The notes: generated by a model from the sequence alone, not told the origin. 32,000 nt of DNA from an uncultured archaeon (GCA_964510585.1 CAZECW010000139.1:3333-35332), one strand, 5' to 3'. Shown: positions 1 through 18,956, numbered from the stretch's first letter. Program-made: numbers and translations.

Positions 1-418
1 CCGGATTATCCTCGTAGTCGTTTCTAATCATCCATTTTATGGCATCACTCATAGTTCTTACGTGGGTAATTATGCCTGTAGATATTGCTATGGTGTCACC
101 CTCAGGACTATAAAGGGTAAAGCACAGTTCTCCTAACTCTTGGACAATGGGGGAGGCAGATATATTCATAGATGTTTCCCGAGCACTAACTAGGGAGCCT
201 CTAATGAGCGCAAATATCCGCTCGTAAACAAGTGGGTTCTGCTCTTTATATTCTAATTTTTCTAGTCCATAGTATCTCCCCGTTTTCCGGAAGAGTTCCT
301 CGGATTCCTTCAACATTTCTTTTAGGGTTTTACCGTTCCATCCAATTTTTCTGGTTCTCGAGCCTTCTACTCCCTCAATCTCCACCAATTGTGGTTCTCT
401 AACAAAACTTGGCACCAT
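1..418 (-). CDS. acxB: Acetone carboxylase alpha subunit (hydantoinase B/oxoprolinase family), 5' part only; runs off the window start
   Basis: Not in the ORF track; translated by hand from ATG at 418: MVPSFVREPQ...GKTLKEMLKESEELFRKTGRYYGLEKLEYKEQNPLVYERIF...ARETSMNISASPIVQELGELCFTLYSPEGDTIAISTGIITHV...WMIRNDYEDNPG. This closely follows the AcxB N-terminus as I recall it (ARETAKKIAASPIVEQEGELCFTLY...STGIIIHV). The start lies 3 nt after the acxA stop. Confidence 0.9.
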   Translation of the reverse strand, partial: MVPSFVREPQLVEIEGVEGSRTRKIGWNGKTLKEMLKESEELFRKTGRYYGLEKLEYKEQNPLVYERIFALIRGSLVSARETSMNISASPIVQELGELCFTLYSPEGDTIAISTGIITHVRTMSDAIKWMIRNDYEDNP

Positions 419-421
419 TCC

Positions 422-2557
422 TCACTTCCTCCTTATGTGAAATATTCGATACTCATCTAAGTATGCGTAACAGTCTCGGGGCAGAAAGAGGGTGGTGTTG
501 GGAGATTCCACAATCGCCGTACCATTTATTACGTTTCCCGCTTTTAGTAGATCCATTTCGTACACTTCTCCGGGTGACCATTGACCCCTCCAGTAAACGT
601 CTCTCTCACCCTTAAAAGCCTCTTCAGGAGGCTTTGCACCCTTCTTTTTCTCCTTGTACAGTACTGGTTTTTTTAAGGGATACCTTCCAACCCCTATAGC
701 GTATGTTAGGTAGTAACCTGCTTCTGGAAGTTTTGCGCTTCGGGCGTAAATTTTTTCGTAGTGTTTTTCAAAGGTTTCAATTACTTTATCCATATCCTTT
801 CCTGAGAGTATCTTTTCCACGGGGGATGGAAATTCCAAGTCGGTTAGTTGACCTGCGTATTGCATTCGGACATAGGGATGGAAGGTTATTTTTCCCTTCT
901 CACAACCAGCGTCTACTAATTCTTTGAAGCATTCCTCCCTCTGAGAATCCCAGAACCCGGTGACCAGTGAACCAATAAAACTCTTAAAATCATCATTGGC
1001 ATTAGGCCAAATTGGTAGATCCGATGAGCGATCTCTTCTAGCCTCCAGATTTCCACAAGCACAGCCAAAGGCCGAAAAGGCAGCCGCCCAACTGGGAACC
1101 AATACATCCAAAAATGGAATTTCCCGAGTATAGTTTGCTGCCAGAACTGGGCCGCCCCCACCATAGGAAAGCAAAACATAGTCCACAGGTGAATAGCCTC
1201 TTCCCAATATAGCTCCGTAAACTATATCCCTCATCTGGGTCTCAAGTAACTCTACGACTCCCGCAGCAGCATCGTAAGTGTCAAGGCCCAGTTCGGATGC
1301 TACTTGTTTTTCTATCTCTCTATACGCTTTTTCCTTGTTTAGCTTTATTTCTCCGCCTAAGAAGTAGTCTGGATTCAGAACTCCCAGTACAAGCTCACAA
1401 TCGGTGATGGTAGGATACTCCACCCCGCCTTCCTCAAATGAGACTCCGATGCGATAACCAGCGCTGTCTGGACCAATCTCTACTCTCTTTGAGATTGGAT
1501 CCACTCTCACATAGCTTCCCATGCCAGCCCCTCGACTCTCTGTAGCCACCATGGGCAGATTAATCAGAAACCTGCCTATTTCTGGATTGGCTTCAATAGT
1601 GTATTCTCCGTCGGTGATTAGTCCCACATCAAAGCTCGTTCCACCAACATCAGTGCACACAATGTTTCTTAAGCCTAGGACTTCGCCCAAATATTTTCCT
1701 CCAATTATTCCGCCTATGGGACCAGAAGTCATTGAGCGAACCAACTGTTTTGTTTCTATGCTAATTGCACCCCCGTGACTTGACATGATCCGAAGTTCGA
1801 ATCTTGACCCTAGCTTTCTCAACTCCTGATCAATTTTTCTCAGTTGACTTCTTGAGCCTGCAGCTGCGTAGGCTTCTAGAGTTACCACATTCATTCTTGG
1901 AAAATCACCCCTAATAGGATGAAATTCGGAGGCTGTTATGATGGGAATATTCACCTTTCTCTCTGCCAAAACTTTTTGTGCTATTTCCTTAGCTCTGCTC
2001 TCATGAATTCCGTTCCTATAAGAAAAGAGAAAATTAATAACGATAGCCTCAACTCCCAAGTCTAATAGTTCTTTAACAGCTGATTCCACCTCGTGCTCAT
2101 AAAGTGGGATTACAATATCACCCATAACATCTATCCTCTCCCTAACTCCTCGAATGAGCTCCTCGGGTATAAGCGGCTCATTGTGAATGTGGGTGGCAGC
2201 ATGAAACCGATCCTGGTAGGAGTATCCCATATAGGTTTGTTTAGCTCTCTCCAAGCGGAAATAATGCTCCATTCCCTTCGTTACTATGGCTCCCACTTTG
2301 CTGCCTTTCCTCTCAAGAACCCTGTTGAGCATAGTGGTTCCGGAGTAGATAGCAGTTTCGAGGTTGGGAACAGTGTCTTCAGCCTTCATATCCCAGTAAC
2401 TCAAAGCATTGCTCAGCGAGGCCAAGAAACCTATAGACTCATCATAAGGGGTGCTTCGCGCCTTGCCAATGGTAAAGCGGCCTTCCTCATCTATCACTAT
2501 CGTATCAGTCATCGTGCCGCCAGCATCGATTGCCAGGACATTTGGAACCTTTACCAA
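422..2557 (-). CDS. acxA: Acetone carboxylase beta subunit (hydantoinase A/oxoprolinase family)
   Basis: 711 aa with IDAGGTMTD, YSGTTMLNRV, SGPIGG, DVGGTSFDV, GPDSAGYRIGV, LLSYGGGGP, AFSAFG and MQYAGQLTDLE motifs, collinear with AcxA; directly upstream of acxB. Confidence 0.9.
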   Translation of the reverse strand: MVKVPNVLAIDAGGTMTDTIVIDEEGRFTIGKARSTPYDESIGFLASLSNALSYWDMKAEDTVPNLETAIYSGTTMLNRVLERKGSKVGAIVTKGMEHYFRLERAKQTYMGYSYQDRFHAATHIHNEPLIPEELIRGVRERIDVMGDIVIPLYEHEVESAVKELLDLGVEAIVINFLFSYRNGIHESRAKEIAQKVLAERKVNIPIITASEFHPIRGDFPRMNVVTLEAYAAAGSRSQLRKIDQELRKLGSRFELRIMSSHGGAISIETKQLVRSMTSGPIGGIIGGKYLGEVLGLRNIVCTDVGGTSFDVGLITDGEYTIEANPEIGRFLINLPMVATESRGAGMGSYVRVDPISKRVEIGPDSAGYRIGVSFEEGGVEYPTITDCELVLGVLNPDYFLGGEIKLNKEKAYREIEKQVASELGLDTYDAAAGVVELLETQMRDIVYGAILGRGYSPVDYVLLSYGGGGPVLAANYTREIPFLDVLVPSWAAAFSAFGCACGNLEARRDRSSDLPIWPNANDDFKSFIGSLVTGFWDSQREECFKELVDAGCEKGKITFHPYVRMQYAGQLTDLEFPSPVEKILSGKDMDKVIETFEKHYEKIYARSAKLPEAGYYLTYAIGVGRYPLKKPVLYKEKKKGAKPPEEAFKGERDVYWRGQWSPGEVYEMDLLKAGNVINGTAIVESPNTTLFLPRDCYAYLDEYRIFHIRRK

Positions 2558-2943
2558 TTTTTACCACCAATTATTTCCAATCAAAAACAGTTCATAGCTT
2601 ATATGACGAAACTGGTGTTATTTTAATTTAAGTTCCTACTTTTTCATTATTCACAGATATAAAATTATCTCCTGATTTGTCAAGTGGCAAACTCTATAAA
2701 TTTTTTAATATATTTTATTTGTAAATTAAAAAATTTTCAAAAAATTAAGAAAAAATTATAAAAACAAAAATCTAATTCACTTGCATCAATTTAAGGAGTG
2801 TGGTGGCAAAAACGTATACTTCCCGTTTACGGTAAAAAATTCAATTTGGCAAATTTGTCGAAGAATAGAAATCATATCGCAAGACGACTCTAGTGCCCAG
2901 TCAGAAGCGGGATGACAGAAATGTTACTCACGATAATAATTTT

Positions 2944-3576
2944 TTAGTAACCATTGGGCAGGGATTCTACAAATGAGTAGTCTAATTTTATGTTTTCATT
3001 TGCGTTTCCGATGACAGGTACATCGTGGCCTGGTAGGAGTATCTCAACATCCAGCTCTGTTAGTCTTTTTATTGATTTCTTAAGCTCGAGTATGTCGCCT
3101 CCAGGTATGTCTGTGCGCCCCACCCCGTAAGCAAAAATGGTGTCTCCTGAAAAAAGAATCTTTTTATCCGAATTGTATAGACAGATGCTGCCCGGGGAAT
3201 GACCTGGGGTATGGATAACTTTGAAATTCATATTCCCAAGCTGTATTATGTCTCCGTCCTTCAGTTTGACTTGAACCTCAAATCCCGCCTTTTTCTCAAT
3301 GTAGGCTGCCTCGATTTCGTGAATCATTACTTCAGCTGCACAGAAATCCACTACTTCAAGCACTCCACCAATGTGGTCTGGGTGGAAGTGAGTTATTACC
3401 AATTTTTTTATGTTCCGAGGGTCTAGGCCCAGAGATTCAATATCCTTGATGAAGTGGCTCCTGAAATCCCCGGTTAAGCCGGAATCAATTAGTGCCAGTT
3501 CACCCTTGCCAACAACGTAAACGTTTGATCCCCAGGAACGCCCAGGAATCATTGCTATTTGGTCAATTATCTCCAT
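2944..3576 (-). CDS. MBL-fold metallo-hydrolase (glyoxalase II-like)
   Basis: THFHPDHIGG, HTPGHSPGS, LFSGDT and LLPGH motifs. ATG 3576 preferred because AGGGTGA lies upstream; the track starts at GTG 3588. Confidence 0.88.
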   Translation of the reverse strand: MEIIDQIAMIPGRSWGSNVYVVGKGELALIDSGLTGDFRSHFIKDIESLGLDPRNIKKLVITHFHPDHIGGVLEVVDFCAAEVMIHEIEAAYIEKKAGFEVQVKLKDGDIIQLGNMNFKVIHTPGHSPGSICLYNSDKKILFSGDTIFAYGVGRTDIPGGDILELKKSIKRLTELDVEILLPGHDVPVIGNANENIKLDYSFVESLPNGY

Positions 3577-3756
3577 TTCAAATTTCACCCTTTTCTCGGA
3601 AGATTAACTATACAAATACCCAAATACATTTATATTTTCGCCCAGTTTGAGAATCTGGGTTTAGTGGTTTGATTTTTAAGTGCAGGGGAAATGTTATCTT
3701 TAAAGATTTTGATTATCAAATGTTATTCTACCAAAGTGTTGGAGGTTTAGTTAGTT

Positions 3757-4176
3757 ATGCCGAGTGTGGAAGAGCTTTTGGAGAAGGCTAAGGGTTTCTA
3801 TCCTAAACACCCAGACCTTATGAGGCACCTTGAGATAGGAGCGCTATGGGAGTATCATATTCGCCCCTTCACACTGGACAGCAACGATAAACTCATCTTC
3901 CACTTAACGAAGCTCTCCGAGGATGAAATCAGATTTGAACAGGGACCTGCACCAGAAAAGCCAGATTTAATACTTTATTTTACCGAGAACGCCATGGTGA
4001 AACTGGTCGATGAATCAAATGATGCTGACACCTATTATGAGAAGTATCGTGAAATACTCAAAAACCCCGACGTAGGAGTGGAACTAGACTACAAAATAAA
4101 TAAACCCCGCCTAAAACTCTTCAGAATGGGCTACAAAGAATGGGCTGAAACCTACAAGTTCCAAGCTTGGACCTAA
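3757..4176 (+). CDS. Hypothetical protein, possible SCP2 (sterol carrier/lipid-binding) fold
   Basis: 139 aa with a GGAGG RBS. The pattern LWEYHI / LIFHL / IRFEQG / KPDLILYFTENAMVKLV resembles SCP2 strands plus the 'PD-h-x-h...helix' segment. The fold call is pattern-based only. Confidence 0.6.
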   Translation: MPSVEELLEKAKGFYPKHPDLMRHLEIGALWEYHIRPFTLDSNDKLIFHLTKLSEDEIRFEQGPAPEKPDLILYFTENAMVKLVDESNDADTYYEKYREILKNPDVGVELDYKINKPRLKLFRMGYKEWAETYKFQAWT

Positions 4177-4485: not shown

Positions 4486-4706
4486 ATCAAATAACACCTC
4501 TCACAATCTAATCCATTGGGAATAAAAGTATTTTTTCTTTGCCCCTTATCGGATACTGTTTTTGAGAATTTTTCAAACAGAAAATATTTACACCAAATTA
4601 TTTCAACAATTTTACAAATACTTTTTTAAACAAATTTATTAGAACGAAAAATAACAATTTTATATTCTTAGAATTGTGATGGTTTTGGAATATTAGAGGT
4701 GGTTTC

Positions 4707-5353
4707 TTGAGTGAAGTCTTGAATAAAATTGCCAAGTCTATCGAAGAGTTGGATGGAAAAGAAGCCGAGAAATTGGTGAGGAAGGCTCTGGACGAGGGCG
4801 TTGACCCGGTTAAGATTTTGGAGGATGGAATTATAGCCGGAGTCAGAGCCATTGGAGAAAAGTTTGAAAAAAGGAGTACTTTTTAGCCGAACTTTACGAA
4901 GGCGGTGAAATAGCGGAGAAACTGGTGGAAATTGTGGGACCTAGGATACCCAAGGAGGCAGGTGGGGCACGCAAGAGAGTGGTTATTGGCACAGTGCACG
5001 GAGACCTACATGATATAGGTAAGAATCTTGTAGCTATGCAGCTTACCATGGCGGGCTTTGAAGTTAGAGATCTAGGCATAGATGTTCCCGCAATGAGATT
5101 CATCGAGGAGGCGGAGAACTTCAAAGCAGATATTATAGCTATGTCATCTCTCTTGATGGCCACAATGATGAATATGGCAGAAGTTGTGAACCTTCTAAAA
5201 GAGCTTGGCTTGAGAGACAAATACAAAGTACTGGTGGGCGGTGGACCCATAAATCCCGCTTTAGCTCAAATGTTTGGAGCAGACGGATACGCTGAGAACG
5301 CTGTGGAAGCGGTAAAGGTCGCCAAAAAGTTGGTGGGCTTAGGAGGTGCTTAA
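4707..5353 (+). pseudogene. Methyltransferase cognate corrinoid protein (MtmC/MtbC-like), interrupted by a 1-nt frameshift in an A6 run at 4867-4872
   Basis: TTG 4707 (RBS AGAGGTGG) reads MSEVLNKIAKSIEELDGKEAEKLVRKALDEGVDPVKILEDGIIAGVRAIGEKFEK (B12 cap domain) and then stops at TAG 4884-4886. The -1 frame continues KEYFLAELYEGGEIAEKLVEIVGP...GTVHGDLHDIGKNLV (DxHxxG)...SSLL...VGGG. One extra A gives a normal 215-aa protein. This could be a sequencing error rather than a true pseudogene. Confidence 0.85.
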
Positions 5354-5356: not shown

Positions 5357-6727
5357 ATGGTTAGAATAAAAGACATACAGGAAAGAGCTCTAACAGGACC
5401 AGTTATGAAGGAGAGAGAATATGATAAAATGCTTTCCAAAAGGGTTCGCGAATTAGTAAAAGACTACGACATAAAATTTGACATGAACCAGATTATTCCA
5501 GATGACAGTGTGGCTGACGATGTTTTCAAAGCAGGATTCGACCTCCTAATAGACGTAGGCATCTACCATCTGGACACTAACAGGAATATAAAATTCACAG
5601 AGAACGAAATAAAAGAGATGATTAAAAGCCGTCCCAGTGAGGTAAAATTCGGAACCGGCAAAGACCAAATAACAATCAAGAATAGAAAACCCGAGGAAAA
5701 GACGAAACCAGTGATAACCACTGGAGGAGGCATTCTCAGCGAAGACATGTTCCTCCCGATAGTAAAATCCTGCGCGCAAGAACCTACATGTCAGGGAATT
5801 AACGGCTTCAGCTTAATTAGCGCATGGGGCCTAGATAACAAAACGGGAACTCCGGGGGAAATTATGTGTGCCATAGCTGAGGGATTATGGAACAGGGAAG
5901 CTGTAAAAACCGTAGGAAAACCAGGTCTTTATATAGGCTTAGCAGGGGCTAGCGCACTATCACCCGCAGGAGCCATAGCAGCCTTCCACCCTGACGGGTA
6001 CACCAAAGAAAACGCGCAGATACCCATACACCTCTTCAACGAACTCAAACTAACTTGGAGCAGATTCATACTAGCCACATATGCTCGACTAAACGGTATA
6101 GTGCCCTGGACTTCTTACGGTGCGGCCATAGGACTCCTCTTCCGAAATTCTGAGGAGGCATCTGTAGGAGCCATCGCCGCTCTGCTAGCGGAACTAGCCT
6201 ATGGGCAGGGGTCCCTCTGTATGGGCGGCGGCATGGGATCAGATGGCATGGTAATGAGAAGAGAGTCCCTAGCCTCGGGTGCTACTTGCACGTTAGCTTT
6301 GACTAATAATCTTCATGTCCCTGTGGGAGGGGTGGGCGGCGGTGGCGGTTACGCAGGACCTTGCACCGAGATGCGTGTTTACGAAATCGCAATAATAAAT
6401 CTGATGAGTGTAGCATCAGGAGCCGGCTGGCTCTGGTACAGTGGAACTCTAAGAACATTGATTAACTACTGCACTGGTATGGAGGGTAGAATAATGGGTG
6501 AAACAGCCCGCGCCATAGCTGGAATGAAAAGAGCCGACGCCAACGAATTAATAAATAAACTCTTACCCAAAATAGAAGACAAGGAAAACCCGGAAAAAGC
6601 ACCTATAGGTAAGAGCTTCATGGAATGCTATGATATCAAAACCTTAACTCCATCAAAAGAATACACAGACCTCTACGCAAGGGTAAAAAAGGAACTCATA
6701 GATTACGGCATAGAGTACGAGTACTAA
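5357..6727 (+). CDS. mtmB: Monomethylamine methyltransferase MtmB-family protein without pyrrolysine; substrate unknown
   Basis: 456 aa, uninterrupted. FNELK, AGPCTEM, TGMEGRIMGETARAIAG and APIGKSFMECYDIKTLTPSKEY match MtmB segments. There is no in-frame TAG at the Pyl site (GKPGLYIGLAG versus GRPGMGV-O-GP). It lies 3 nt after the corrinoid gene. The symbol denotes family only. Confidence 0.85.
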   Translation: MVRIKDIQERALTGPVMKEREYDKMLSKRVRELVKDYDIKFDMNQIIPDDSVADDVFKAGFDLLIDVGIYHLDTNRNIKFTENEIKEMIKSRPSEVKFGTGKDQITIKNRKPEEKTKPVITTGGGILSEDMFLPIVKSCAQEPTCQGINGFSLISAWGLDNKTGTPGEIMCAIAEGLWNREAVKTVGKPGLYIGLAGASALSPAGAIAAFHPDGYTKENAQIPIHLFNELKLTWSRFILATYARLNGIVPWTSYGAAIGLLFRNSEEASVGAIAALLAELAYGQGSLCMGGGMGSDGMVMRRESLASGATCTLALTNNLHVPVGGVGGGGGYAGPCTEMRVYEIAIINLMSVASGAGWLWYSGTLRTLINYCTGMEGRIMGETARAIAGMKRADANELINKLLPKIEDKENPEKAPIGKSFMECYDIKTLTPSKEYTDLYARVKKELIDYGIEYEY

Positions 6728-9175: not shown

Positions 9176-9288
9176 ATTACAGATAGTAGGCAGAACTCTT
9201 CCAAAGCCAAAATACCTTTGCAGATATTTTGGGGTTGAAGCTGTAAAGTTACCCAAAGATTAATATCTATGAAGGCATTAATAACCCA

Positions 9289-9477: not shown

Positions 9478-9501
9478 AGTTAATTTCGGAGCGTGAAATA
9501 T

Positions 9502-10452
9502 GTGTCTGTCTTAACTGCTTGGAGAGAAAAATGTATCATAACCTGTGCCCTTACGGGATCCGCTACTTTTCCCTCCCAGACACCCTACCTACCCATAACA
9601 CCGGACCAGATATCTGACGAGGCAAAAAAGGCCTGCGACGCAGGCGCAGCAGTAGTCCACGTCCACGTGAGAGACCCCAAAACCGGCATGCCCACAGCCG
9701 ACCTAGGCGTGTGGAGAGAAACCCTAACAAAAATAAAGTCAAAAACAGACGTAATAGTCTGCTGCACAACAGGAGGGGGAGCCGGAATGACCCCCGAACA
9801 AAGAATAGCGGTGGTTCCAGAATTCAAGCCAGAAATGTGCTCCTTCAACGTGGAATCAATGAACTTCGCAGTATTCCCCATAGCGGAAAGAATTAAGGAG
9901 TGGAAATATCCCTGGGAAAAACCAGTAGTGGAAATGAGTAAGGGACTGATTTTCCAGAACAGCTTCAAAGACCTCGAAGTATTCTCCAAAACAATGTATG
10001 AAAACAACGTTAAACCCGAACTTGAGATTTATAGCACGAGTGGCATCTGGAATGCGGGAGCCATGCTCCGCTTTGGATGGCTTAAATTCCCCCTGCACAT
10101 GCAATTCGTCCTAGGGGTGCTCGGGGGCACAGGAAACACACCATGGGAACTAATACACTTCTATGACGAAGCCGCCCGACTCTTCGGCACGCAAAACTTC
10201 ACCTGGTCAGTGATCGGAATCGGGTACCCAAGAGAGTTCCACTTGGGAGCCATGGCGGCAATAATGGGAGGACATATAAGAGTTGGGCTAGAGGACAACA
10301 TTTACATAGCCCATAGAGAGTTGGCCAAGAGCAATGCAGAACTAGTCGCCAAGATGGTTAGGATAGTCAATGAACTGGGAAGAGATGTGGCCTCACCTGA
10401 CGAAGCAAGGAAAATGCTGGGACTAAAAGGACTGGACAAGGTCAACTACTAA
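9502..10452 (+). CDS. Beta-keto acid cleavage enzyme (BKACE/DUF849, 3-keto-5-aminohexanoate cleavage family), paralogue 1
   Basis: IITCALTG, Zn-binding HVH, TTGG and HIRVGLEDN (Glu ligand/Asp). Start GTG 9502 chosen because it aligns with the paralogue's ATG; the track starts at 9493. Confidence 0.92.
   Translation: MSVLTAWREKCIITCALTGSATFPSQTPYLPITPDQISDEAKKACDAGAAVVHVHVRDPKTGMPTADLGVWRETLTKIKSKTDVIVCCTTGGGAGMTPEQRIAVVPEFKPEMCSFNVESMNFAVFPIAERIKEWKYPWEKPVVEMSKGLIFQNSFKDLEVFSKTMYENNVKPELEIYSTSGIWNAGAMLRFGWLKFPLHMQFVLGVLGGTGNTPWELIHFYDEAARLFGTQNFTWSVIGIGYPREFHLGAMAAIMGGHIRVGLEDNIYIAHRELAKSNAELVAKMVRIVNELGRDVASPDEARKMLGLKGLDKVNY
9564..9770 (+). repeat. 207-bp near-identical tract shared with 10935-11141
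   Basis: Codon-by-codon comparison of the two BKACE genes shows a single mismatch (9678 C versus 11049 T) in 207 nt. Confidence 0.95.
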
Positions 10453-10488
10453 AAAAACAGCCGCCTTTCTTCTTTTTTGCTGTTTTTT
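10452..10488 (+). terminator. Hairpin/oligo-T terminator after BKACE paralogue 1
   Basis: AAAAAACAGC (10452-10461) and GCTGTTTTTT (10479-10488) form a perfect 10-bp inverted repeat around a pyrimidine-rich loop, immediately at the stop codon. Confidence 0.6.
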
Positions 10489-10872
10489 ATGAAAACTGTC
10501 AGTATTTAGAACAACAGTTGAAAGTCTTTTTGGAGGCGGAGGCTCTACAAACATGTCGCAATAAAAGCAAAACCCATGGTGTTCTTACCAGTTTTCCTAT
10601 TGAAGGGATTAGTCTGAAGCCCAATTAATTCCTATAAGAGTTCTCTGATGCAACCCCTAATTTTCCATACAAGCGTCTTATGAAACCATCACTCTTGCCC
10701 TGTTGATAGATTTTACAATTCGCGTAGAACAAGGGGGAAGAGATTTTCGGGTAATGCGGTGAATGATTACTTTGAGGAGCCAGCAAAAGTTCGATGCAAG
10801 GTACCAATAAATTAATATTTGTCATATTCTTCTAAAAATATGGGTTGGAAGAATTTTTGGAGGTGTGAAGAA

Positions 10873-11841
10873 ATGTCATTTTTAACTGCTTGGAGAGAAA
10901 AATGTATCATAACCTGTGCCCTAACTGGGTCAGTTACTTTTCCCTCCCAGACACCCTACCTACCCATAACACCGGACCAGATATCTGACGAGGCAAAAAA
11001 GGCCTGCGACGCAGGCGCAGCAGTAGTCCACGTCCACGTGAGAGACCCTAAAACCGGCATGCCCACAGCCGACCTAGGCGTGTGGAGAGAAACCCTAACA
11101 AAAATAAAGTCAAAAACAGACGTAATAGTCTGCTGCACAACTGGGGGAGGAGCAGGAATGACAGCCCAGCAGAGAATAGCGGTGGTTCCAGAATTCAAGC
11201 CAGAAATGTGCTCCTTCAACGTAGAATCAATGAACTTTTCAGTGTTCCCACTCGCAGAGAGAATAAAGGAGTGGAAAACTGACTGGGAAAAGCCCCTAGT
11301 AGAGTGGAGTAAGGGAATGATCTTCCAGAACTCATTTGCAGACCTTGAAGTGTTTGCCAAAACTATGTATGAAAACAATGTTAAACCGGAACTTGAGATT
11401 TACAGCAGCAGTGGCGTCTGGAACGCGGGTGCTATGCTCCGCTTTGGATGGCTTAAATTCCCCCTACACATACAATTCGTCCTAGGAGTATTGGGAGGAA
11501 CGGGCAACACACCCTTTGAATTGATGCACCTTTACAACGAGGCTAGCCGACTCTTCGGCACACAAAACTTCACTTGGTCAGTAATCGGAATAGGATACCC
11601 GCAAGAATTCCACCTAGGAGCGATGGCGGCAATAATGGGAGGCCACATAAGAGTGGGCATGGAAGACAACATTTATGTGGGTTACGACCCCGTGAAGAAG
11701 GAGCGTATACTTGCAAAGAGCAACGCTGAACTGGTTGCAAAGATGGTTAAGATAGTTAACGAATTGGGAAGAGATGTAGCTTCACCTGACGAAGCAAGGA
11801 AAATGTTGGGACTAAAGGGATTAGACAAGGTCAACTACTAA
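10873..11841 (+). CDS. Beta-keto acid cleavage enzyme (BKACE/DUF849), paralogue 2
   Basis: Same motifs (HVH, HIRVGMEDN) and a GGAGGTG RBS before ATG 10873 (track starts at 10819). About 24 substitutions plus a 6-aa insertion relative to paralogue 1, by hand count. Confidence 0.92.
   Translation: MSFLTAWREKCIITCALTGSVTFPSQTPYLPITPDQISDEAKKACDAGAAVVHVHVRDPKTGMPTADLGVWRETLTKIKSKTDVIVCCTTGGGAGMTAQQRIAVVPEFKPEMCSFNVESMNFSVFPLAERIKEWKTDWEKPLVEWSKGMIFQNSFADLEVFAKTMYENNVKPELEIYSSSGVWNAGAMLRFGWLKFPLHIQFVLGVLGGTGNTPFELMHLYNEASRLFGTQNFTWSVIGIGYPQEFHLGAMAAIMGGHIRVGMEDNIYVGYDPVKKERILAKSNAELVAKMVKIVNELGRDVASPDEARKMLGLKGLDKVNY
10935..11141 (+). repeat. Second copy of the 207-bp tract
   Basis: Offset of 1371 nt from 9564-9770; one mismatch. 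Confidence 0.95.
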
Positions 11842-11911
11842 AGACAATATACGCTCCCCCTTTTTTATTGGTAAAAAAAGAGAGTTTAATTGTTTCGAAG
11901 AAAGCCACTGA

Positions 11912-12697
11912 TTATAGTTCCCTTAGGGTTCCTTTTAGGTCTATTCGGGTTCTTATTACTTGGAGTTCTTCTTTTGTGGGTGGCTCTGTTTCTGGAACGT
12001 CATCTGGAATTATGAGTTGGAATCCAGTGTTGTTTTTAACCTCTTCGATCGATACTCCTGGGTGTACTGATTTTAGGCGCATTCTTTTGGTCTTTTCTTC
12101 GAAGTCCATTATACAGAGAGGTGTTAATACATATTTGGGGCCTCCTCCAGGTAGGCCTAGTTTTTTTCTGGAGTTTCCCCCGTCTCCCCAGCCTACGGCG
12201 GTTATGTATTCGCATTTGTCCACGAAAATCATTGGGTGGTGCCTCTCAGAGTAGATATAGTAGCGGCCCACGTAGGTTGTTATTGTTGATTGTCCAATGG
12301 CGCCTGGTCCTCGGAACATCAATTTTGGGTACTGTCCGCCAATGCCGAGCAGGTTTATGTTTCCATATTTGTCTATTTGGAGGCCTCCGAAGAAGCTGAC
12401 ATCATACCTTCTTATAGTATCCCAGAGGTGCTCATATTCTGGTACTTCTTCGCAGTATTTGAATCCAGAGTAGTCTGTGACGAATTCAAAACTTTCTATT
12501 TGTTTCACGTCTGAGAAGTTGGCGCGGTAAAACTGTAGCCAGCGCATGTTTGGTGCGTGTGTTAGGTGTGCGAGGAGTACGCCTGCTCTACACGCGGGTA
12601 GGTTGGCTCCTATTAGTACTGTTTCGCCGTCTTTGATTTCTCGGGAGATGAAAGCAGCTAGGAGCTCTCTTATTGAGTAATCTTTGTTTCTGCTCAA
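11912..12697 (-). CDS. Class I CoA-transferase beta subunit homologue (GctB/CatJ/IpdB family)
   Basis: FFGGLQIDKYGNIN, RGPGAIG, SVHPGVSIEEVKNNTGF and TEPPTKEEL motifs; AGGTGA RBS; downstream of the alpha subunit. Confidence 0.85.
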   Translation of the reverse strand: MSRNKDYSIRELLAAFISREIKDGETVLIGANLPACRAGVLLAHLTHAPNMRWLQFYRANFSDVKQIESFEFVTDYSGFKYCEEVPEYEHLWDTIRRYDVSFFGGLQIDKYGNINLLGIGGQYPKLMFRGPGAIGQSTITTYVGRYYIYSERHHPMIFVDKCEYITAVGWGDGGNSRKKLGLPGGGPKYVLTPLCIMDFEEKTKRMRLKSVHPGVSIEEVKNNTGFQLIIPDDVPETEPPTKEELQVIRTRIDLKGTLREL

Positions 12698-12710
12698 TTT
12701 TTTTCACCTT

Positions 12711-13601
12711 CTACCATCTGTATAGAGAGAGGAGTTTCTTCATACCGATTACTTCAAGATACTCTTCGTGTGAATTTGGTTCAAGGATGTATTTTTTGAG
12801 GTACTGGTTGAAGGGCTCAGGGTTTCCCTTTGTGTAAGCCTTGGCCGCCTCCACGTACTCTTTGAGGTGTTCCCTGTCTAAATCGTAGAATCCATCGCTT
12901 GAGAAGGGGTGGGAACCATATGGGGTGGGCACCACCGCATCAACCCCGTAAATCTTTGTTAGGTGTGGGTTTCTCTTTATGTCTTCGTTAGAAACCACTT
13001 TTTCTACTTGAAAGACGCATTTTTTGGAGGCTCTCGCCATTAGAATGTCTGCGTAGGTGTTTCCCACGTACTGTATGTTGCCATATGGGTCGCTCCAGGA
13101 TGCGTGAAGTATGGCTACGTCGAGTTCCAGTGCGGGGACAGCTAGCAATGTTTGTCCCTTTATGGGGTCTTGGAAGTATTTTAGATCGGGGTTAATGTCG
13201 GGCAGGCAGGTGCCAACGCCGCCTAGCCAGGGTAGGAAAGGTAGCCCCTCGGCCGCGGCTCTTAGTGCGGTGCATAGGATTGCTTCGTCGCACTCCCACA
13301 TTTGAATGGTGCCGTCCACTACTGCTTTTCGGAAGAATGGACCTATGGGTGCGAGTGATTCTCCTCCCACGTAAGCAGTGGCCACCTTCTTTGCGACACC
13401 CGCTCCGATCATCAAGTCAATTTCTAGTCCCGCTGCGGGTGAGCCTACTACTGTCAGGTTTTTTACACCGTTCTTAATGATTTGGCGAATTATGGCCATG
13501 GGGTGATTTGCAGTTAGAAGGCCCCCGATGCCTACGGTCATACCGTCCTTTATCATTGAGGCTGCCTCTCTTACACTCATAATGACTTCTTTTCTGGTCA
13601 T
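12711..13601 (-). CDS. Class I CoA-transferase alpha subunit homologue (GctA/CatI/IpdA family)
   Basis: IKDGMTVGIGG...HPMAIIRQI, ECDEAIL...RAAAEGLPFLP, LDVAILHA..SDPYGN and VDAVV..PYGSHP motifs. Confidence 0.87.
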   Translation of the reverse strand: MTRKEVIMSVREAASMIKDGMTVGIGGLLTANHPMAIIRQIIKNGVKNLTVVGSPAAGLEIDLMIGAGVAKKVATAYVGGESLAPIGPFFRKAVVDGTIQMWECDEAILCTALRAAAEGLPFLPWLGGVGTCLPDINPDLKYFQDPIKGQTLLAVPALELDVAILHASWSDPYGNIQYVGNTYADILMARASKKCVFQVEKVVSNEDIKRNPHLTKIYGVDAVVPTPYGSHPFSSDGFYDLDREHLKEYVEAAKAYTKGNPEPFNQYLKKYILEPNSHEEYLEVIGMKKLLSLYRW

Positions 13602-13891
13602 GATAACACCAGCTTCAGATGCTGTTAAAACCCGATATGTGGAATTAGCTTATAAATAAAAGCCCAAAAAATAAAGGATAAAACTAATTTTAGTTAACTC
13701 TGATCATTTGGGACGAAATTTACCGACCGACTTCCACAAATGTCCACCGATATGGCGGAAAAGTGAACCTGTCTGGGTAGCGACCTGAATTATTTTGGTT
13801 AATTGTATGGTGTTCGGCTAATCGCTAGTGCTATTTGTGGAAAGGTTTGCATAGGATTCAGAAGTTACTCATATGGTAAAGTTTTGGCGCA

Positions 13892-15025
13892 TTATGTTTT
13901 TTGTTGTAGGGCGAGGACCGCCGCTTCTATTATTGTTTTTGTGAATTCTTCAAGTGTGAATCCTGTGTAGTCTATTTTGTTACTTTTGAAGGCTTCAACT
14001 ATGGCGTTGCTTATGGCCTTCTCGTTTTCCGCTGATATTCCTTTGAGGGCGTTAACCACTTTTTCCAGACCGTCTGCTGGGGAGAGTAGAAAGTCGCCAG
14101 TTATGAGAATGTCTCTAATCTTTTTGGTCTTGTCTATGGCTACGCTGGCGTTGATAGTTCTTTCTGACTTGTATCTGAAGGTTGCAGCCCTCCAATCGTT
14201 GGGCAGTTTACTGTACCATCTACTCTTGGAAACGCTGGTAACTACATCTTCTGCGGTGAGTTTTTTGAAGCCCTCAGTAATCATTTCTTTTTCTTCCTCG
14301 GTGAAGTTTCCGGGTGCAAATTCCATTCCCAGTTTCTGTTTCACAATGGTTAGCAAGAGATTCTTTACTTCTTCTTCAGTAGGTGTTCTGGGTGCATCCT
14401 TTTCCATGCTACCCGCATACATGGTTACGTCGCGCAACAATTTGTCCTTCAGCTTCTCCTCTGGATAAACATAATAATCTGTGAAGAACTTAACGCTGGG
14501 GGTAAGCCGGTTGATGAAGGTTCCCACCACAACCCCTTTTCCCCAAATTAGGGAAGTGCTTCCACCCAACTTTTTGTCATCTTTTCGAATGTCGCCCGGA
14601 TGACTATAGTAGGCGTCTAAAACACCCACCCTCATGAAGAGTTCTAGAACCACTTCGCCGGCCCAAATCCTCTCAGCCTCCTCCAAATTTGGAAACACGT
14701 CCGTGGTTGTCACCAGTACCGCCGCGATTTGGCCCTTTGGGGCATAGTAGGTGCCAGCTCCACTCTCCCTCCGCCCCACCAGCACACCGTCCCTTTTCAC
14801 AGCCTTGTACCTAATCTCATCCAAGTCCTCATACTTACCCAGGCTCAGTGATTCTTTACCATGAGAAACAAATATAAGCGTGTCTGGAATCTTACCCGCA
14901 TCACGCATCTTGGACAAAACATCAAAAGCCACAAGCAACTCTACACCAGACATATCAGAAACAATTAGTCTCCCCTTAGACTGAGTTCTAAACTTCTTCT
15001 CCCTTCTTTCCAACTGTTCCAACAC
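13892..15025 (-). CDS. lplA: Lipoate-protein ligase A family protein with C-terminal domain
   Basis: VGRRESGAGTYY (RRxSGGG-like), PGDI...DKKLGG (catalytic Lys) and C-terminal ILITGDFLLSP. A GGAGGTG RBS at 15038-15032 favours a start at 15025 or 15022; the track starts at 15040. Confidence 0.78.
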   Translation of the reverse strand: MLEQLERREKKFRTQSKGRLIVSDMSGVELLVAFDVLSKMRDAGKIPDTLIFVSHGKESLSLGKYEDLDEIRYKAVKRDGVLVGRRESGAGTYYAPKGQIAAVLVTTTDVFPNLEEAERIWAGEVVLELFMRVGVLDAYYSHPGDIRKDDKKLGGSTSLIWGKGVVVGTFINRLTPSVKFFTDYYVYPEEKLKDKLLRDVTMYAGSMEKDAPRTPTEEEVKNLLLTIVKQKLGMEFAPGNFTEEEKEMITEGFKKLTAEDVVTSVSKSRWYSKLPNDWRAATFRYKSERTINASVAIDKTKKIRDILITGDFLLSPADGLEKVVNALKGISAENEKAISNAIVEAFKSNKIDYTGFTLEEFTKTIIEAAVLALQQKT

Positions 15026-15587
15026 AAAAAACACCTCCAACTCAAAGAATAAATCTATGTATTATAATCTCCAACCATCTTGGGGCTGTTAATCGTTGAA
15101 ATTAGAGAAAACCTGTTTTTCTCCACTAAGGAATACATTTTCAGTGATAATCAACATATTTATAATTTTTGGAGCAAAGAGGGACAAAATGCAGCTTCTC
15201 CACATTTGTACCGAGCAAAACTAATCCGTTGCGTATAACCGGCCAAAATGTGGGTAGTAGGAGGAAGCGAAACTTACTGACAGGCCTCATATAAATAGTT
15301 TTTTTGTCGATAGTTTTATAAAGAAAACAAATCCAGAGAAACGAAATCCAGAGCATCGTAAATATGAAGTGAAGCGTTACCCCTTTAAATGTGAGGCGTT
15401 AGTGGCTACAGTGATTCCTCCACCAAAAAATCACACGCGAAAAATGGTGACCAAAATTCGTTAAGACGCTGCGAACAGTCTTTTGATTAAACCTTAGAGT
15501 GGAGGAAAACAAAGGCGGAAGACCCAAATAAGCATTCAAACAAAGAATGGATATTTCGTACTATTCTGGATTTAAACCAACTTGGGT

Positions 15588-15625
15588 GAAACCCTATTTT
15601 GAAAAATCAAAACGGGTAGGGTTTC
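15588..15625. promoter_or_regulatory. Nested inverted repeat 42 nt upstream of the thiolase-fold operon
   Basis: GAAACCCTA-TTTTGA-AAAA-TCAAAA-CGGG-TAGGGTTTC forms a 15-bp stem with a 4-nt bulge. Function unknown. Confidence 0.4.
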
Positions 15626-15667
15626 CAGAGGCTGAATAAATTGAATTCCTTTGTAGAGGTTTAAATT

Positions 15668-16810
15668 ATGGATAAAGAAGTAGCCATTGTGGGAGTAGCA
15701 CAAACCAAGTATGAGGAAGAAAAGGCGGATTTACCCTACTCTGAACTAGTTTTCGAAGTCGTCAAAAAACTCCACGACGAGCTGGGAATAACTAAAGACG
15801 ACGTGGGAAGCATAATAACTAGCTCCAACGATTTCAACGACGGAAGAACAATAGCCAGCATGGCCATTCAGGATGCTTTAGGAGCCGTGGGAAAATCGGA
15901 GTCCCGAGTATCGGGAGACGGAGCATTCGCCTATGTCTACGGAGTAATGAGAATACTAGAAGGAACATACGATACAGTGATGGTGGTTTCACACTGCAAG
16001 TGTTCCGAGTCAAACATTTACCTTGTAAACAATTCTATTTTTGAGCCCTACTACCAGAGATGGCTGGGACTAGACCAGGTCTCTTCGGCGGGATTAATGG
16101 CGAACATGTACTCACACAAGTATGGAATCACCCAAGAACAAGCGGCAAAAGTGGCAGTAAAAAACCGCAAAAACGCTCTAAACAATCCCTACGCACATCT
16201 ACAAAAAGCAGTTACAGTCGACGAAGTCCTAAATTCCAAAATGATGGCCTACCCCCTCAAAGAACTAGATCTACCGCCACTCTCGGACGGAGCTGTAGCA
16301 ATGCTCCTAACAAACAAAGAGAAAGCCAAAAAATATACAGACACACCAGTGTGGTTTAAGGGCCACGGCAATTGCACCGACGCCTACTACCTTGGACACC
16401 GCAACATGACCGACCTCATAGGACTAGAACTAGCAGCAAGAGAAGCCTACAAAATGGCGGGAATAAAAAACCCCATGAAGGAAATCGACGTAGCAGAAAT
16501 CTATGAAGCGTTCACCTACCACGAACTAATGAATTATGAAGCCCTAGGACTATGCAAAAAAGGCGAGGGAGGAAAACTCATCGACAGCGGACAAACAGAA
16601 ATGAACGGAACCCTCCCAGTAAACCCCTCAGGAGGCGTACTCTCAAGCAACCCCTCCATGGCCAACGGACTAGTTCGTGTAGCAGAAATCGCACTGCAAC
16701 TAATGGGCAAAGCCGAAAAAAGACAGGTGAAAGACGCCAAAATTGGACTAGCCACAGGAATGAATGGAATCTGCTCCCAAGGAAACTGCGTAATCATATT
16801 AGAAGCATGA
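15668..16810 (+). CDS. ltp4: Thiolase-fold protein lacking the catalytic Cys, Ltp4-like
   Basis: LHDELGITKDDVG, SSNDFNDGR, DVAEIYEAFTY, NPSGGVLSSNPSMANGLVRV and SQGNCVIILE parallel actinobacterial Ltp4 as I recall it. There is no CxS nucleophile (ESRVSGDGA) and no GHP His. Confidence 0.72.
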   Translation: MDKEVAIVGVAQTKYEEEKADLPYSELVFEVVKKLHDELGITKDDVGSIITSSNDFNDGRTIASMAIQDALGAVGKSESRVSGDGAFAYVYGVMRILEGTYDTVMVVSHCKCSESNIYLVNNSIFEPYYQRWLGLDQVSSAGLMANMYSHKYGITQEQAAKVAVKNRKNALNNPYAHLQKAVTVDEVLNSKMMAYPLKELDLPPLSDGAVAMLLTNKEKAKKYTDTPVWFKGHGNCTDAYYLGHRNMTDLIGLELAAREAYKMAGIKNPMKEIDVAEIYEAFTYHELMNYEALGLCKKGEGGKLIDSGQTEMNGTLPVNPSGGVLSSNPSMANGLVRVAEIALQLMGKAEKRQVKDAKIGLATGMNGICSQGNCVIILEA

Positions 16811-16829
16811 AAATGAGGAGATGAAAAAT

Positions 16830-17990
16830 ATGGTAAAACAAAAAGTAGCAATTGTGGCAACCGGCCAAACAAAACACAGAAGCCGAAGAAGAGACGTCAA
16901 CATATCCGAAATGATTTATGAAGCAGTAAAAATGGCCCTAGATGAAGCCCAACTCACACCCAAAGACATAGACGCCGTCGTTATTGGAAACATGGACCAC
17001 TTCGAAGGAATAAACTTCTCCGAAATGTGGACCGGAATAGAATCCGCACCTGGATACCTCAAACCCGTAGTAAAAGTAGCCACAGGGGGAACCACCGGAA
17101 CCTCCCTAGCAGCATACGGATACTACGCAGTAGCCTCTGGAATGTATGACAAAGTACTAGTAGTGGGATGGGAAAAAATAAACGAAGGAGGAGCCACAAC
17201 CGGAATAGTAACAGCCTTCGACGCCAGATGGGAAAGACCCGCCCTAGCCGGGGCACTAGGCCCCCTCGCTCTGATGGCTAGTATGTATATGTGGGAATTT
17301 GGAGTAACACCAGAACAAGCCGCAAAAGTAACAGTCAAAAACAGAAGAAACGCAGCAAATAATCCCTTCGCACACCTGCAACAACCCAACATGACAGTAG
17401 AAGAAGTGATGAACTCACCAGTAATATCGTGGCCCCTAAGACTCCATGATTGTTGCCCGCAGAGTGAGGGTGCTTGTGCGATTGTTTATGCGGGTGAGGG
17501 TGTGGCTAGGAAGATTAGTGATAATTTGGCGTGGGTTAAGGGTGTGGACACGGGGCACTATTATACTTATGGTGGCGATGATGTGATGCATAAGTATCCT
17601 GCGGCCAAGATTGCTTCTACCAGGCTTTACAAGAAGGTGGGTATTAGGAATCCGTTGAAGGATTTGGATGTGGCTGAGGTTTATGAGCCGAGTAGTTGGG
17701 CGGAGCTTATGTGGACTGAGGCTTTGGGTTTCTGTGAGTATGGTCAGGGTGGTAAGTTGTTGGATGAGGGTGTTACTGAGATGGGTGGTGAGTTGCCAGT
17801 GAATCCTTCGGGCGGTGTTATTGCGACGAATCCTATTGGTGCTACGGCGCTTATTCGTGTGGCTGAGGCTGCGATTCAGGTTAGGGGCCTGGGTGGTAAG
17901 CGTCAGGTTCCTGATGTGGAGTTGGCGTTGGCTCATGGTTTCGGTGGTAGTGTTTGGGCGGATCTTATGATTTTGGGTAAGGAGCCTTGA
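16830..17990 (+). CDS. ltp3: Thiolase-fold protein lacking the catalytic Cys, Ltp3-like
   Basis: TGQTK, DHFEGI, AHLQQPNMTVEEVMNS, AEVYEPSSW and NPIGATALIRVAEAAIQV parallel Ltp3. The nucleophile position reads ATGGTTG. A GAGGAG RBS favours ATG 16830; the track starts at 16821. Confidence 0.75.
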   Translation: MVKQKVAIVATGQTKHRSRRRDVNISEMIYEAVKMALDEAQLTPKDIDAVVIGNMDHFEGINFSEMWTGIESAPGYLKPVVKVATGGTTGTSLAAYGYYAVASGMYDKVLVVGWEKINEGGATTGIVTAFDARWERPALAGALGPLALMASMYMWEFGVTPEQAAKVTVKNRRNAANNPFAHLQQPNMTVEEVMNSPVISWPLRLHDCCPQSEGACAIVYAGEGVARKISDNLAWVKGVDTGHYYTYGGDDVMHKYPAAKIASTRLYKKVGIRNPLKDLDVAEVYEPSSWAELMWTEALGFCEYGQGGKLLDEGVTEMGGELPVNPSGGVIATNPIGATALIRVAEAAIQVRGLGGKRQVPDVELALAHGFGGSVWADLMILGKEP

Positions 17991-18004
17991 TTTGAGGTGA
18001 TTTT

Positions 18005-18490
18005 ATGAGTGAGAAGAAGGAAGAGCCTTTTACTATAAATTGGCTTACTGATTTGCCTTATCGTTATGCTTTGGGACCCGTTGCATCGAAGTTCTTTAGG
18101 GTGCTTAAGGAGTCTGGTAAGTTACTGGCGATTAAGTGTAGGAAGTGTGGGAAGGTGTTGTTCCCTCCGAGGTCTGTGTGTGCGGACTGTTTGGTGGAGA
18201 TGACTGTGGATGATATGGTTGAATTGAGTGGTGAGGGTTCGCTGGATGGTTTTACTGTGGTTAATTATCCTTTTGTGGATCCTAATACTGGTGAGACGAG
18301 GCCTTTTCCGTATGGTTATGGTGCGATTAAGTTGAAGGGTACAGATACTTGGATGCTGCATTTTGTCGATGAGACGGATCCTGGGAAGATTAAGCCGGGT
18401 ATGCTGGTGAAGGCGGTGATTAAGCCTAAGAATGAGCGGAAAGGTACTTTAGAGGATATACCCTACTTTAGAGCGGTTGAGAAGAAGTGA
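18005..18490 (+). CDS. DUF35 family Zn-ribbon/OB-fold protein
   Basis: CRKC...FPPRSVCADC, GxLxxFTVV and PFPYGYGAIKL motifs; GAGGTG RBS. Confidence 0.9.
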   Translation: MSEKKEEPFTINWLTDLPYRYALGPVASKFFRVLKESGKLLAIKCRKCGKVLFPPRSVCADCLVEMTVDDMVELSGEGSLDGFTVVNYPFVDPNTGETRPFPYGYGAIKLKGTDTWMLHFVDETDPGKIKPGMLVKAVIKPKNERKGTLEDIPYFRAVEKK

Positions 18491-18515
18491 GATTTCAATC
18501 TGTGGAGGTTTTGTT

Positions 18516-18956
18516 GTGAGTGAGGATAAGTATTTTCATGGTAGGATTAGGGTGCCTTATAGGCATGTTGCTGGTGCTTATGCTGGTCGGTTTATTCAGG
18601 AGATTGGCAATAATAAGAGGATTATGGGTGTGAAGTGTTCCAGATGTGGTAAAGTGTATGTTCCTCCTAGGATGGTTTGTTTTGCGTGTTTTGAGAAAAT
18701 GAAGGAATGGGTCGAAGTTGGCAAGCAAGGTACGGTTAAGGGATTTACGGTGGTTAACTATTCGACGCCAGTTATGCCGTTGAAGCCCCCCTTTGCTTAT
18801 GGGATTATTGAGTTAGATGGTTCAAATACTGGTTTTGTGCACATCATTAAGGAGGGTGACCCCAAGAAGCTGAAGGTTGGCATGCGGGTTGAGGCTGTTT
18901 TCAAGAGCAACCCAGAGGGCAACATTTTGGACATTGAATACTTCAAACCAGTATAG
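18516..18956 (+). CDS. DUF35 family Zn-ribbon/OB-fold protein, second copy
   Basis: CSRC..VYVPPRMVCFAC, GTVKGFTVV, PFAYGIIELDG and GMRVEAVF motifs; GGAGG RBS before GTG 18516 (track starts at 18477). Confidence 0.9.
   Translation: MSEDKYFHGRIRVPYRHVAGAYAGRFIQEIGNNKRIMGVKCSRCGKVYVPPRMVCFACFEKMKEWVEVGKQGTVKGFTVVNYSTPVMPLKPPFAYGIIELDGSNTGFVHIIKEGDPKKLKVGMRVEAVFKSNPEGNILDIEYFKPV

Follow-up and report, generated by a model that had tools for sequence, protein, structure and literature searches.

Thiolase-fold proteins that lack the nucleophilic cysteine and work with a DUF35 partner include the steroid side-chain aldolases Ltp2-ChsH2 (structure 6OK1) and Sal-Shy. In these enzymes, the catalytic-base tyrosine opens the motif equivalent to HDCF of thiolases (YDHF in TcLtp2 and YDCY in CtSal), and in CtSal the nucleophile is replaced by Gly (PMC12329534). 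The Ltp3/Ltp4 systems of Rhodococcus rhodochrous and Mycobacterium tuberculosis (Rv3521-Rv3523) combine two different adjacent thiolase-fold genes with two DUF35 units, and the part of PMC6593523 that cites Wilbrink 2012 presents Ltp3 and Ltp4 as genetically assigned aldol-lyases for C24-branched sterol side chains. Here, we analyzed a 32,000-nucleotide stretch (the window) from an uncultured archaeon (GCA_964510585.1 CAZECW010000139.1:3333-35332), in which a cassette of two cysteine-less thiolase-fold genes and two DUF35 genes lies within 19 kb of genes for beta-keto acid cleavage enzyme (BKACE) and a three-subunit acetone-type carboxylase (AcxABC, or Acx). The window takes up the right-hand 32 kb of its contig (C139, 35.3 kb) and begins at C139:3333. 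The host genome is 3.78 Mb long and 96% complete, and the names on near-identical public proteins and contigs place the host, an Asgard archaeon, in Candidatus Jordarchaeia/Freyarchaeota from hot springs. To our knowledge, Ltp3 and Ltp4 themselves lack biochemical characterization.

The first-pass annotation had linked the three modules of positions 1 to 18956 into one bypass for beta-methyl-branched acyl chains. The modules are present and intact there, with the Acx gamma gene just outside the window; the enzyme assignments hold, and the proposed reaction chain is chemically coherent. Comparison across genomes supports the link between BKACE and the cassette but does not support that of Acx to them. 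We consider it moderately probable that the region arose by stepwise assembly as an accessory island with two functionally separate units, namely, Acx (unit A) and a cluster reaching from an OYE-type reductase to the cassette (unit B, 7178-18956). What is new is a conserved, uncharacterized Asgard cluster of BKACE and an Ltp3/4-like cassette, each enzyme type being already known.

Gene content of the two units

Genes were called from an open reading frame listing combined with Pfam and NCBIfam scans of the window and the contig. The genes of the two units are as follows, in window positions unless stated otherwise.

Contig 972-1487 (left of the window), minus strand: Acx gamma (small zinc subunit; PF08882, 171 aa, 147 bits)
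Contig 1501-3753, minus strand: Acx alpha (HyuB type), complete at 750 aa; window 2-418 holds its N-terminal 139 codons
422-2557, minus strand: Acx beta (HyuA type, 711 aa), with Hydant_A_N, Hydantoinase_A, and Hydant_A_C
7178-9175, plus strand: OYE/FadH-type Fe-S flavoenzyme reductase (665 aa)
9493-10452, plus strand: BKACE1 (319 aa; PF05853, 335 bits)
10819-11841, plus strand: BKACE2 (PF05853, 328 bits)
11912-12697, minus strand: CoA-transferase-fold beta subunit, IpdB-like, without the catalytic Glu
12711-13601, minus strand: CoA-transferase-fold alpha subunit, IpdA-like, with Glu106
13892-15040, minus strand: LplA-like protein (382 aa)
15668-16810, plus strand: Thl1, thiolase-fold protein
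16821-17990, plus strand: Thl2, thiolase-fold protein
18005-18490, plus strand: DUF35a (zinc ribbon plus OB fold)
18477-18956, plus strand: DUF35b (zinc ribbon plus OB fold)

The DUF35a and DUF35b genes overlap by 14 nt and lie directly downstream of the Thl pair. The three modules do not form one operon: they occupy both strands and at least five transcription units, with gaps of 320 to 630 nt, two of which contain repeats.

The cysteine-less thiolase/DUF35 cassette

Thl1 and Thl2 were aligned with nine canonical thiolases encoded in the host genome, which show the motifs N-x-C-[AS]-S, HDCF/HDAF, and GHP. All three catalytic elements are kept in the nine thiolases and gone in Thl1 and Thl2: the nucleophile is lost through a 3-residue deletion in Thl1 and replaced by Gly in Thl2, HDCF reads YEAF and YEPS, respectively, and the His of GHP is Asn in both. 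Ordinary beta-oxidation thiolases are ruled out for 15668-17990 by this loss of all catalytic residues. The Tyr of YEAF and YEPS aligns with the catalytic-base position of TcLtp2 and CtSal. It is kept in all eight Thl2-type sequences of the genome versus two of the six Thl1-type sequences, which suggests that Thl2 is probably the catalytic subunit and Thl1 a noncatalytic partner. The genome contains at least six Thl-Thl-DUF35-DUF35 cassettes. Thl1 and Thl2 match the Ltp2 structure 6OK1 at 89 to 97 bits, and the best NCBIfam model for the pair is PRK08313, an unnamed subfamily (381 bits, cut-off 514).

In gene arrangement, the cassette resembles the Ltp3/Ltp4 system, with two different adjacent thiolase-fold genes and two DUF35 units; in addition, a cassette of the archaeal type co-occurs, as in that system, with genes for enoyl-CoA hydratase (ECH), acyl-CoA dehydrogenase (ACAD), an IpdAB-like pair, and OYE-type reductases on the bacterial contig L124. 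It differs in its archaeal host, in having DUF35 as two separate genes, and in its conserved BKACE neighbor, of which we found no description for actinobacterial Ltp3/Ltp4 genes in the literature. Ltp2-ChsH2 and Sal-Shy share with the cassette the cysteine-less thiolase fold (with Gly in both Sal and Thl2), the motif Tyr as base, and the DUF35 partner (PMC12329534), whereas the window encodes a predicted heteromer of two thiolase-fold proteins, with YEAF/YEPS instead of YDHF/YDCY and no counterpart of Cys304. The cassette is a probable Ltp3/Ltp4-like retro-aldolase complex.

The BKACE genes and their linkage to the cassette

BKACE1 and BKACE2 are 89% identical, and BKACE2 is a recent tandem duplicate. 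Both cover the TIM-barrel domain PF05853 in full length (profile positions 1 to 274; Pfam cut-off, 24.8), and their metal motifs HVHVRDP (HxH) and RVGLED (GLED) are kept in alignment with 3LOT and 3E49; we take the HxH and Glu motifs to be the Zn ligands of Kce. Among NCBIfam models, the closest is NF053538, 3,5-dioxohexanoate:acetyl-CoA acetone transferase (367 and 361 bits, under the cut-off of 430). The window BKACEs thus share full-length PF05853 and HxH plus GLED with the triacetate-cleaving 3,5-dioxohexanoate enzyme and with Kce of lysine fermentation (2Y7D) but fall below the model cut-off and lie beside a thiolase-like cassette, not a PF04199 cyclase. More distant BKACE relatives (56 to 58% identical) in Geoglobus acetivorans and on a bacterial contig (L040:9215-10933; L041:10001-12473) adjoin a PF04199 cyclase-family gene and fit the triacetate (phloroglucinol-pathway) enzyme. 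For the island, a phloroglucinol pathway was rejected, there being no cyclase or reductase gene of that pathway in it.

For comparison, 19 loci with orthologous cassettes were retrieved from a further Asgard family, f9, which includes a member labeled Hodarchaeota. Amino acid identities with the window proteins are 72 to 75% for Thl2, 76 to 80% for Thl1, 59 to 62% for DUF35a, and 70 to 71% for DUF35b. BKACE lies directly beside the cassette in 14 of the 17 informative loci, ECH occurs in 14 of 19, and an OYE reductase stands beside the cassette in 5 of 19. Many of these loci also contain ACAD, a second cassette, aldehyde:ferredoxin oxidoreductase (AFOR), iron-type alcohol dehydrogenase (Fe-ADH), and SCP2, and none of the 19 contains Acx or a CoA-transferase-like pair. 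The genome under study has a further example in an independent, paralogous operon on contig C60, encoding, on one strand, Amidohydro_2, a zinc-type alcohol dehydrogenase, a fused CoA-transferase, ECH, two thiolase-fold proteins, two DUF35 proteins, a second ECH, and BKACE. BKACE1 homologues with 83 to 89% identity on long metagenome contigs also adjoin cassettes, and the pairing recurs at L038, L122, and L123, the last with an OYE gene. The cassette-adjacent BKACEs form three clades that are about 40% identical to each other, which indicates that the pairing arose or was kept repeatedly. L124 carries ECH, a cassette (Thl2, 60% identical), ACAD, a CoA-transferase-fold pair lacking the Glu (50% and 47%), and an OYE reductase. 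The link between BKACE and the cassette is strong, and no description of BKACE paired with a cysteine-less Ltp3/Ltp4-like thiolase/DUF35 heteromer was found in the literature searched.

Unit B, comprising OYE, two BKACEs, the IpdAB-like nontransferase pair, the LplA-like protein, and the cassette, would represent, at this site, a catabolic cluster conserved among Asgard archaea. The Thl1/Thl2 heteromer would act as a retro-aldolase on 3-hydroxyacyl-CoAs, yielding acetyl-CoA and a carbonyl compound, and BKACE would convert acetyl-CoA and a free beta-keto acid to acyl-CoA and acetoacetate. A hydratase and the aldolase would regenerate acetyl-CoA while the chain is cut; the cassette and BKACE may therefore share and recycle acetyl-CoA in cleaving nonstandard acyl chains (branched, oxygenated, or alicyclic), and the released aldehyde would pass to AFOR or an alcohol dehydrogenase in the fuller clusters. 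Acetyl-CoA recycling appears to be the most economical mechanism for the BKACE-cassette pair.

Several f9 Thl2 orthologues carry one or two in-frame stops within slightly lengthened matches (G170:C7:116707-117885, G134:C105:25523-26707, and G173:C2:124010-125203, as well as sequences in G128, G040, and G146). These stops may be tRNA-type mini-introns.

The acetone-type carboxylase

The Acx genes run in one direction in the order beta-alpha-gamma, matching acxABC. The alpha subunit matches that of Xanthobacter acetone carboxylase (XaAC; 5M45/5SVB) over its full length at 690 bits, versus only 134 bits for acetophenone carboxylase delta. The Mn(II) ligands of XaAC alpha are E89, H150, D153, and H175 (PMC12250083), and all are kept in the window protein, as E98, H159, D162, and H184. 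The alpha match, the Mn ligands, and the PF08882 gamma subunit identify the left-edge genes as a bona fide three-subunit Acx; a generic hydantoinase/oxoprolinase is ruled out by the same gamma subunit, ligands, and 690-bit match. The set resembles AcxABC of Xanthobacter autotrophicus in its three subunits, gene order, full-length alpha, Mn ligands, and PF08882 gamma and differs in its archaeal host, its long branch, and its being one of three paralogous sets. The other two complete three-subunit sets of the genome (C131:8724-13618 and C52:894-5836) are 42 to 45% identical to the window set, and similarity to XaAC alpha is highest for the window copy (690 versus 615 and 537 bits).

Maximum-likelihood phylogeny places the window alpha on a long branch inside the clade that holds all 24 bacterial sequences (support, 99/97), and the C131 and C52 alphas group with Asgard sequences, each in a different clade. 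The C131 type is common to family f9. The window Acx is approximately 47 to 52% identical to bacterial enzymes, and an alignment-based metagenome scan yielded no intermediate relatives of this type, only relatives of at most 52% identity; a scan with the window AcxB alone gave 51 pattern hits and 0 true relatives. Characterized three-subunit acetone carboxylases take only acetone and butanone; the enzyme that accepts longer ketones is Apc-like and differs in subunit composition (PMC13677872). The window Acx is most likely a bacterial-type ketone carboxylase with acetone or butanone as its substrate.

The Asgard-clade Acx genes of f9 are neighbored by genes for Band 7, OMP decarboxylase-like, M28 peptidase, ACAD, and PGM proteins, which give no pathway clue. 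At 9 of 80 metagenome loci (L145-L147, L150, L155, L159, L161, L165, and L166), a gene for an SCP2-domain protein is found no more than 10 kb from Acx; we found no description of this association.

Linkage of Acx to the other modules

The bypass proposed in the first-pass annotation would run in this genus from a 3-hydroxy-3-methylacyl-CoA, which the cassette would split into acetyl-CoA and a methyl ketone, through carboxylation of the ketone by Acx to a beta-keto acid, to the conversion of that acid by BKACE and acetyl-CoA to a shortened acyl-CoA and acetoacetate, without biotin. All three enzyme types are intact within 19 kb, and the chemistry is gapless. Ltp3 and Ltp4 are aldol-lyases for C24-branched side chains in the account that PMC6593523 takes from Wilbrink 2012. 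The three divergent Acx sets could also differ in ketone range. However, the neighborhoods of Acx elsewhere do not bear out the chain. In addition to the 0 of 19 orthologous cassette loci noted above, eight Acx loci of other Asgard families had no BKACE, Thl, DUF35, or CoA-transferase homologue within 20 kb on either side. Within 10 kb on either side, the 77 closest genomic Acx relatives (45 to 52% identical, all bacterial) had BKACE twice, a Thl-like gene once, and DUF35 once, never together, and 80 metagenome Acx loci had BKACE once and a Thl-like gene twice, again never together. In total, 0 of 165 Acx loci had two modules (BKACE in 3, thiolase-like in 3, and DUF35 in 1). A close relative, L037, holds BKACE and the cassette at the same site without Acx; the window Acx is of the canonical three-subunit type, whose characterized members are confined to acetone and butanone; and the island has no hydratase gene and its modules stand in separate transcription units.

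Presence was scored across 201 Asgard genomes, of which 27 have Acx gamma and 24 have an orthologue of Thl2. Six genomes with only the cassette are 91 to 100% complete and have no Acx gamma anywhere, and genus g32 has both in two genomes, only Acx in four, and only the cassette in five. Neither Acx nor the cassette needs the other. The three modules are rarely together. Of the proposed bypass, two elements stand, namely, the probable retro-aldolase role of the cassette and the conserved partnership of BKACE with it (14 of 17 f9 loci, the C60 operon, and three clades), whereas Acx as the middle step is not supported by the cassette loci, the 165 Acx loci, L037, or the six cassette-only genomes. 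We therefore regard the complete chain as unlikely. The bacterial origin and canonical type of the window Acx likewise disfavor this step, for which small ketones (acetone and butanone) are possible substrates, and a facultative Acx hand-off in the genus of the window is possible.

Several observations weigh against the division into two separate units or against the chemistry proposed for unit B. Among the 201 genomes, both Acx gamma and the cassette occur in 18, only Acx in 9, only the cassette in 6, and neither in 168; for f9 taken by itself, the association has an odds ratio of 4.6 (P = 0.03, uncorrected for phylogeny). This co-occurrence at the genome level, which favors the complete chain, could reflect a real metabolic connection. 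The raw association is confounded by descent, however, because Acx gamma and the cassette are confined almost wholly to the same two families. No PF01039 carboxyltransferase was found in the genome, and therefore a biotin-dependent solution for beta-methyl branches was not found; a biotin-free route would be needed if beta-methyl-branched substrates are used, another point for the chain. The Atu/Liu pathway, in which a biotin-dependent geranyl-CoA or methylcrotonyl-CoA carboxylase acts with a lyase, solves the same beta-methyl-branch problem, but without PF01039 any route in this genome would be mechanistically different. With respect to unit B, the Pfam and NCBIfam scans found no ECH gene in the window, although ECH accompanies the cassette elsewhere. 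The third position of the HDCF-equivalent motif is Ala in Thl1 and Pro in Thl2, so there is no Sal-type acid Cys304, and the general acid of Ltp2 (Tyr344) has no clear counterpart in the alignment; the aldolase chemistry predicted for the cassette is consequently not assured.

The substrate range of canonical Acx (PMC13677872) would also suit an acetone shunt in leucine/isovalerate breakdown, in which 3-methylcrotonyl-CoA is hydrated to 3-hydroxyisovaleryl-CoA, the cassette releases acetone and acetyl-CoA, and Acx carboxylates the acetone to acetoacetate, with BKACE not involved. The lack of a methylcrotonyl-CoA-carboxylase-type carboxyltransferase among the genes found in the genome is in line with such a shunt, as is the prediction that Freyarchaeia are amino acid and peptide fermenters (PMC11291895). 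The same genome paper says nothing on acetone, thiolase, or acetoacetate (PMC11291895). We consider the shunt decidedly improbable: there is no synteny of Acx and the cassette outside this genus, the island has no ACAD or hydratase gene, and the strongly conserved pairing of BKACE with the cassette would be left unexplained.

A broader pathway, spanning at least two Asgard classes, would have the Ltp3/4-like retro-aldolase and BKACE recycle acetyl-CoA to cleave branched or isoprenoid-derived chains, e.g., from the lipids of archaea or plants, and would need neither thiolysis nor biotin nor net ATP. The neighbors assigned to it are ECH, ACAD, OYE reductase, aldehyde:ferredoxin oxidoreductase, alcohol dehydrogenase, and SCP2, and in this genus a horizontally acquired bacterial-type Acx would recover the ketone of the beta-methyl branch as a beta-keto acid for BKACE. 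Taken as a whole, this pathway is quite unlikely. No paper on anaerobic carboxylation of isoprenoid methyl ketones was found in the literature searched; Rontani and colleagues have reportedly worked on 6,10,14-trimethylpentadecan-2-one, which serves as a lead only.

The CoA-transferase-fold pair

The best PDB match of the beta subunit at 11912-12697 is GctB of glutaconate CoA-transferase (1POI), whose catalytic Glu54 (E-x-G motif of class I CoA-transferases) is replaced by Arg. The alignment is trustworthy at this position because the four other CoA-transferase pairs of the genome keep the beta Glu. Glu106 of the alpha subunit sits where 6CO6_A and 6COJ_A differ (Glu versus Ala), a position occupied by Gln, Asn, or His in GctA and the true transferases of the genome. 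The entries 6CO6, 6CON, and 6COJ are presumably those of the ring-cleaving hydrolase IpdAB. The window pair thus shares with IpdAB the CoA-transferase fold, the missing beta Glu, and the alpha Glu at the position varied in 6COJ, whereas its best PDB match overall is still 1POI. The combination of a Glu-less beta subunit with the alpha Glu also occurs in L037 and the bacterial L124. The pair carries the IpdAB signature and is probably not a transferase; 5MZW, which we take to be an AibAB-type decarboxylase, represents an alternative identity. An ordinary acetoacetate CoA-transferase is ruled out for 11912-13601 by the missing beta-subunit Glu, and given the Glu-less IpdAB-type signature, activation of acetoacetate by this pair appears unlikely.

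Assembly of the island

The history of the site was reconstructed from the genes above and from further features, as follows.

2764-2840, in the gap between Acx and the MBL-fold gene: short repeat element
2944-3588, minus strand: MBL-fold hydrolase, glyoxalase II-like
3757-4176, plus strand: 139-aa protein with no family name given (hyp139)
About 4706-5353, plus strand: corrinoid (B12-binding) protein, frameshifted
5357-6727, plus strand: MtmB homologue, pyrrolysine free (PF05369, 280 bits)
9294-9472, between OYE and BKACE1: insert of approximately 180 nt, resembling a miniature inverted-repeat transposable element (MITE)
19971-22352, plus strand: PaaK-like ligase pair after the cassette, a 337-aa N-domain-only protein followed by a 449-aa full-length protein

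The MBL-fold gene, present in every genome of the genus, and the LplA-like gene serve as anchors. Within the genus, the full arrangement is also found in G056, G064, and G082 (91 to 93% DNA identity), G028 contains the B12-MtmB-LplA-cassette part without OYE, BKACE, or the CoA-transferase-like pair, and the complete genome G038 has only MBL beside LplA and no Acx gamma anywhere. L037 reads LplA-LplA-MBL-hyp139-OYE-BKACE (single)-CoA-transferase-like pair-LplA-IS1595 fragments-LplA-cassette at the same site and has neither Acx nor B12/MtmB there. The block borders carry remnants of MITEs and insertion sequences. At least eight more copies of the repeat at 2764-2840 occur elsewhere in the genome, frequently at the ends of contigs, and 200 different letters replace 2672-2940 in a related strain. 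The MITE-like insert has seven more copies in the genome at approximately 90% identity and dozens in genomes of the same genus. Related-strain contigs, from two hot-spring runs labeled metatranscriptomic but probably of DNA and used for structure only (their thin coverage of the Acx genes was set aside), connect 9295 directly with 9484 and 10455 with 11858, so this strain has neither the insert nor the BKACE duplication. These patterns indicate that the modules were brought together stepwise at a hypervariable site, in which Acx is a late, separate arrival. In our preferred reading of two units, Acx would have been inserted next door independently and would feed the same acetoacetate pool as unit B.

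The distribution of the window Acx type also bears on a salvage cycle in which the two units are linked through their shared product. Acetoacetate is thermally labile, and the acetoacetate made by BKACE would decarboxylate spontaneously at hot-spring temperature, with Acx recapturing the acetone. In favor of this cycle, the genome encodes six BKACEs together with three Acx sets, and the habitat is a hot spring. The window Acx type occurs only in this genome, G056, G064, and G082, four close relatives that all have the BKACE-OYE-CoA-transferase-like block here, and G028 and G038 have neither. Such a cycle has, in our estimate, a slim chance of being correct, as it would be energetically costly (ATP to AMP at each turn) and BKACE-rich genomes without Acx exist.

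Neighboring genes

In the corrinoid gene, the first approximately 60 codons stop just after GEKFEK, and the remainder resumes in another frame from KKEYFL. Both G064 and G028 have an uninterrupted orthologue of 215 aa. The frameshift could stem from a homopolymer sequencing error, mark a pseudogene, or be programmed. No amber codon interrupts the reading frame of the MtmB-family gene, for which no NCBIfam model gave a match. The corrinoid gene accompanies it in every case, and in G028 the pair directly adjoins the LplA-cassette block. LplA-like genes (lipoate/biotin ligase fold) are expanded to approximately 12 copies in the genome; copies recur around the island (up to four in L037) and near the BKACE of C189, as well as on C134 and C193. 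The PaaK-like pair is repeated at many genome loci (21 to 25 tblastn hits). The first approximately 130 nt of the contig (L001:1-140) are a repeat seen at many contig ends (91 tblastn hits), which truncates an LplA-like gene (L001:16-864) that is intact, at 364 aa, in G064.

Implications

A three-step, biotin-free removal of methyl branches should not be read from gene proximity alone. The cassette is unusually well conserved (Thl2 identity, 72 to 75% across Asgard classes and 60% with the bacterial copy), which points to an important and unstudied C-C cleavage step by which Asgard archaea process organic matter. The cassette is also a tractable way to learn the function of Ltp3/Ltp4-type proteins, which bears on sterol catabolism in mycobacteria.

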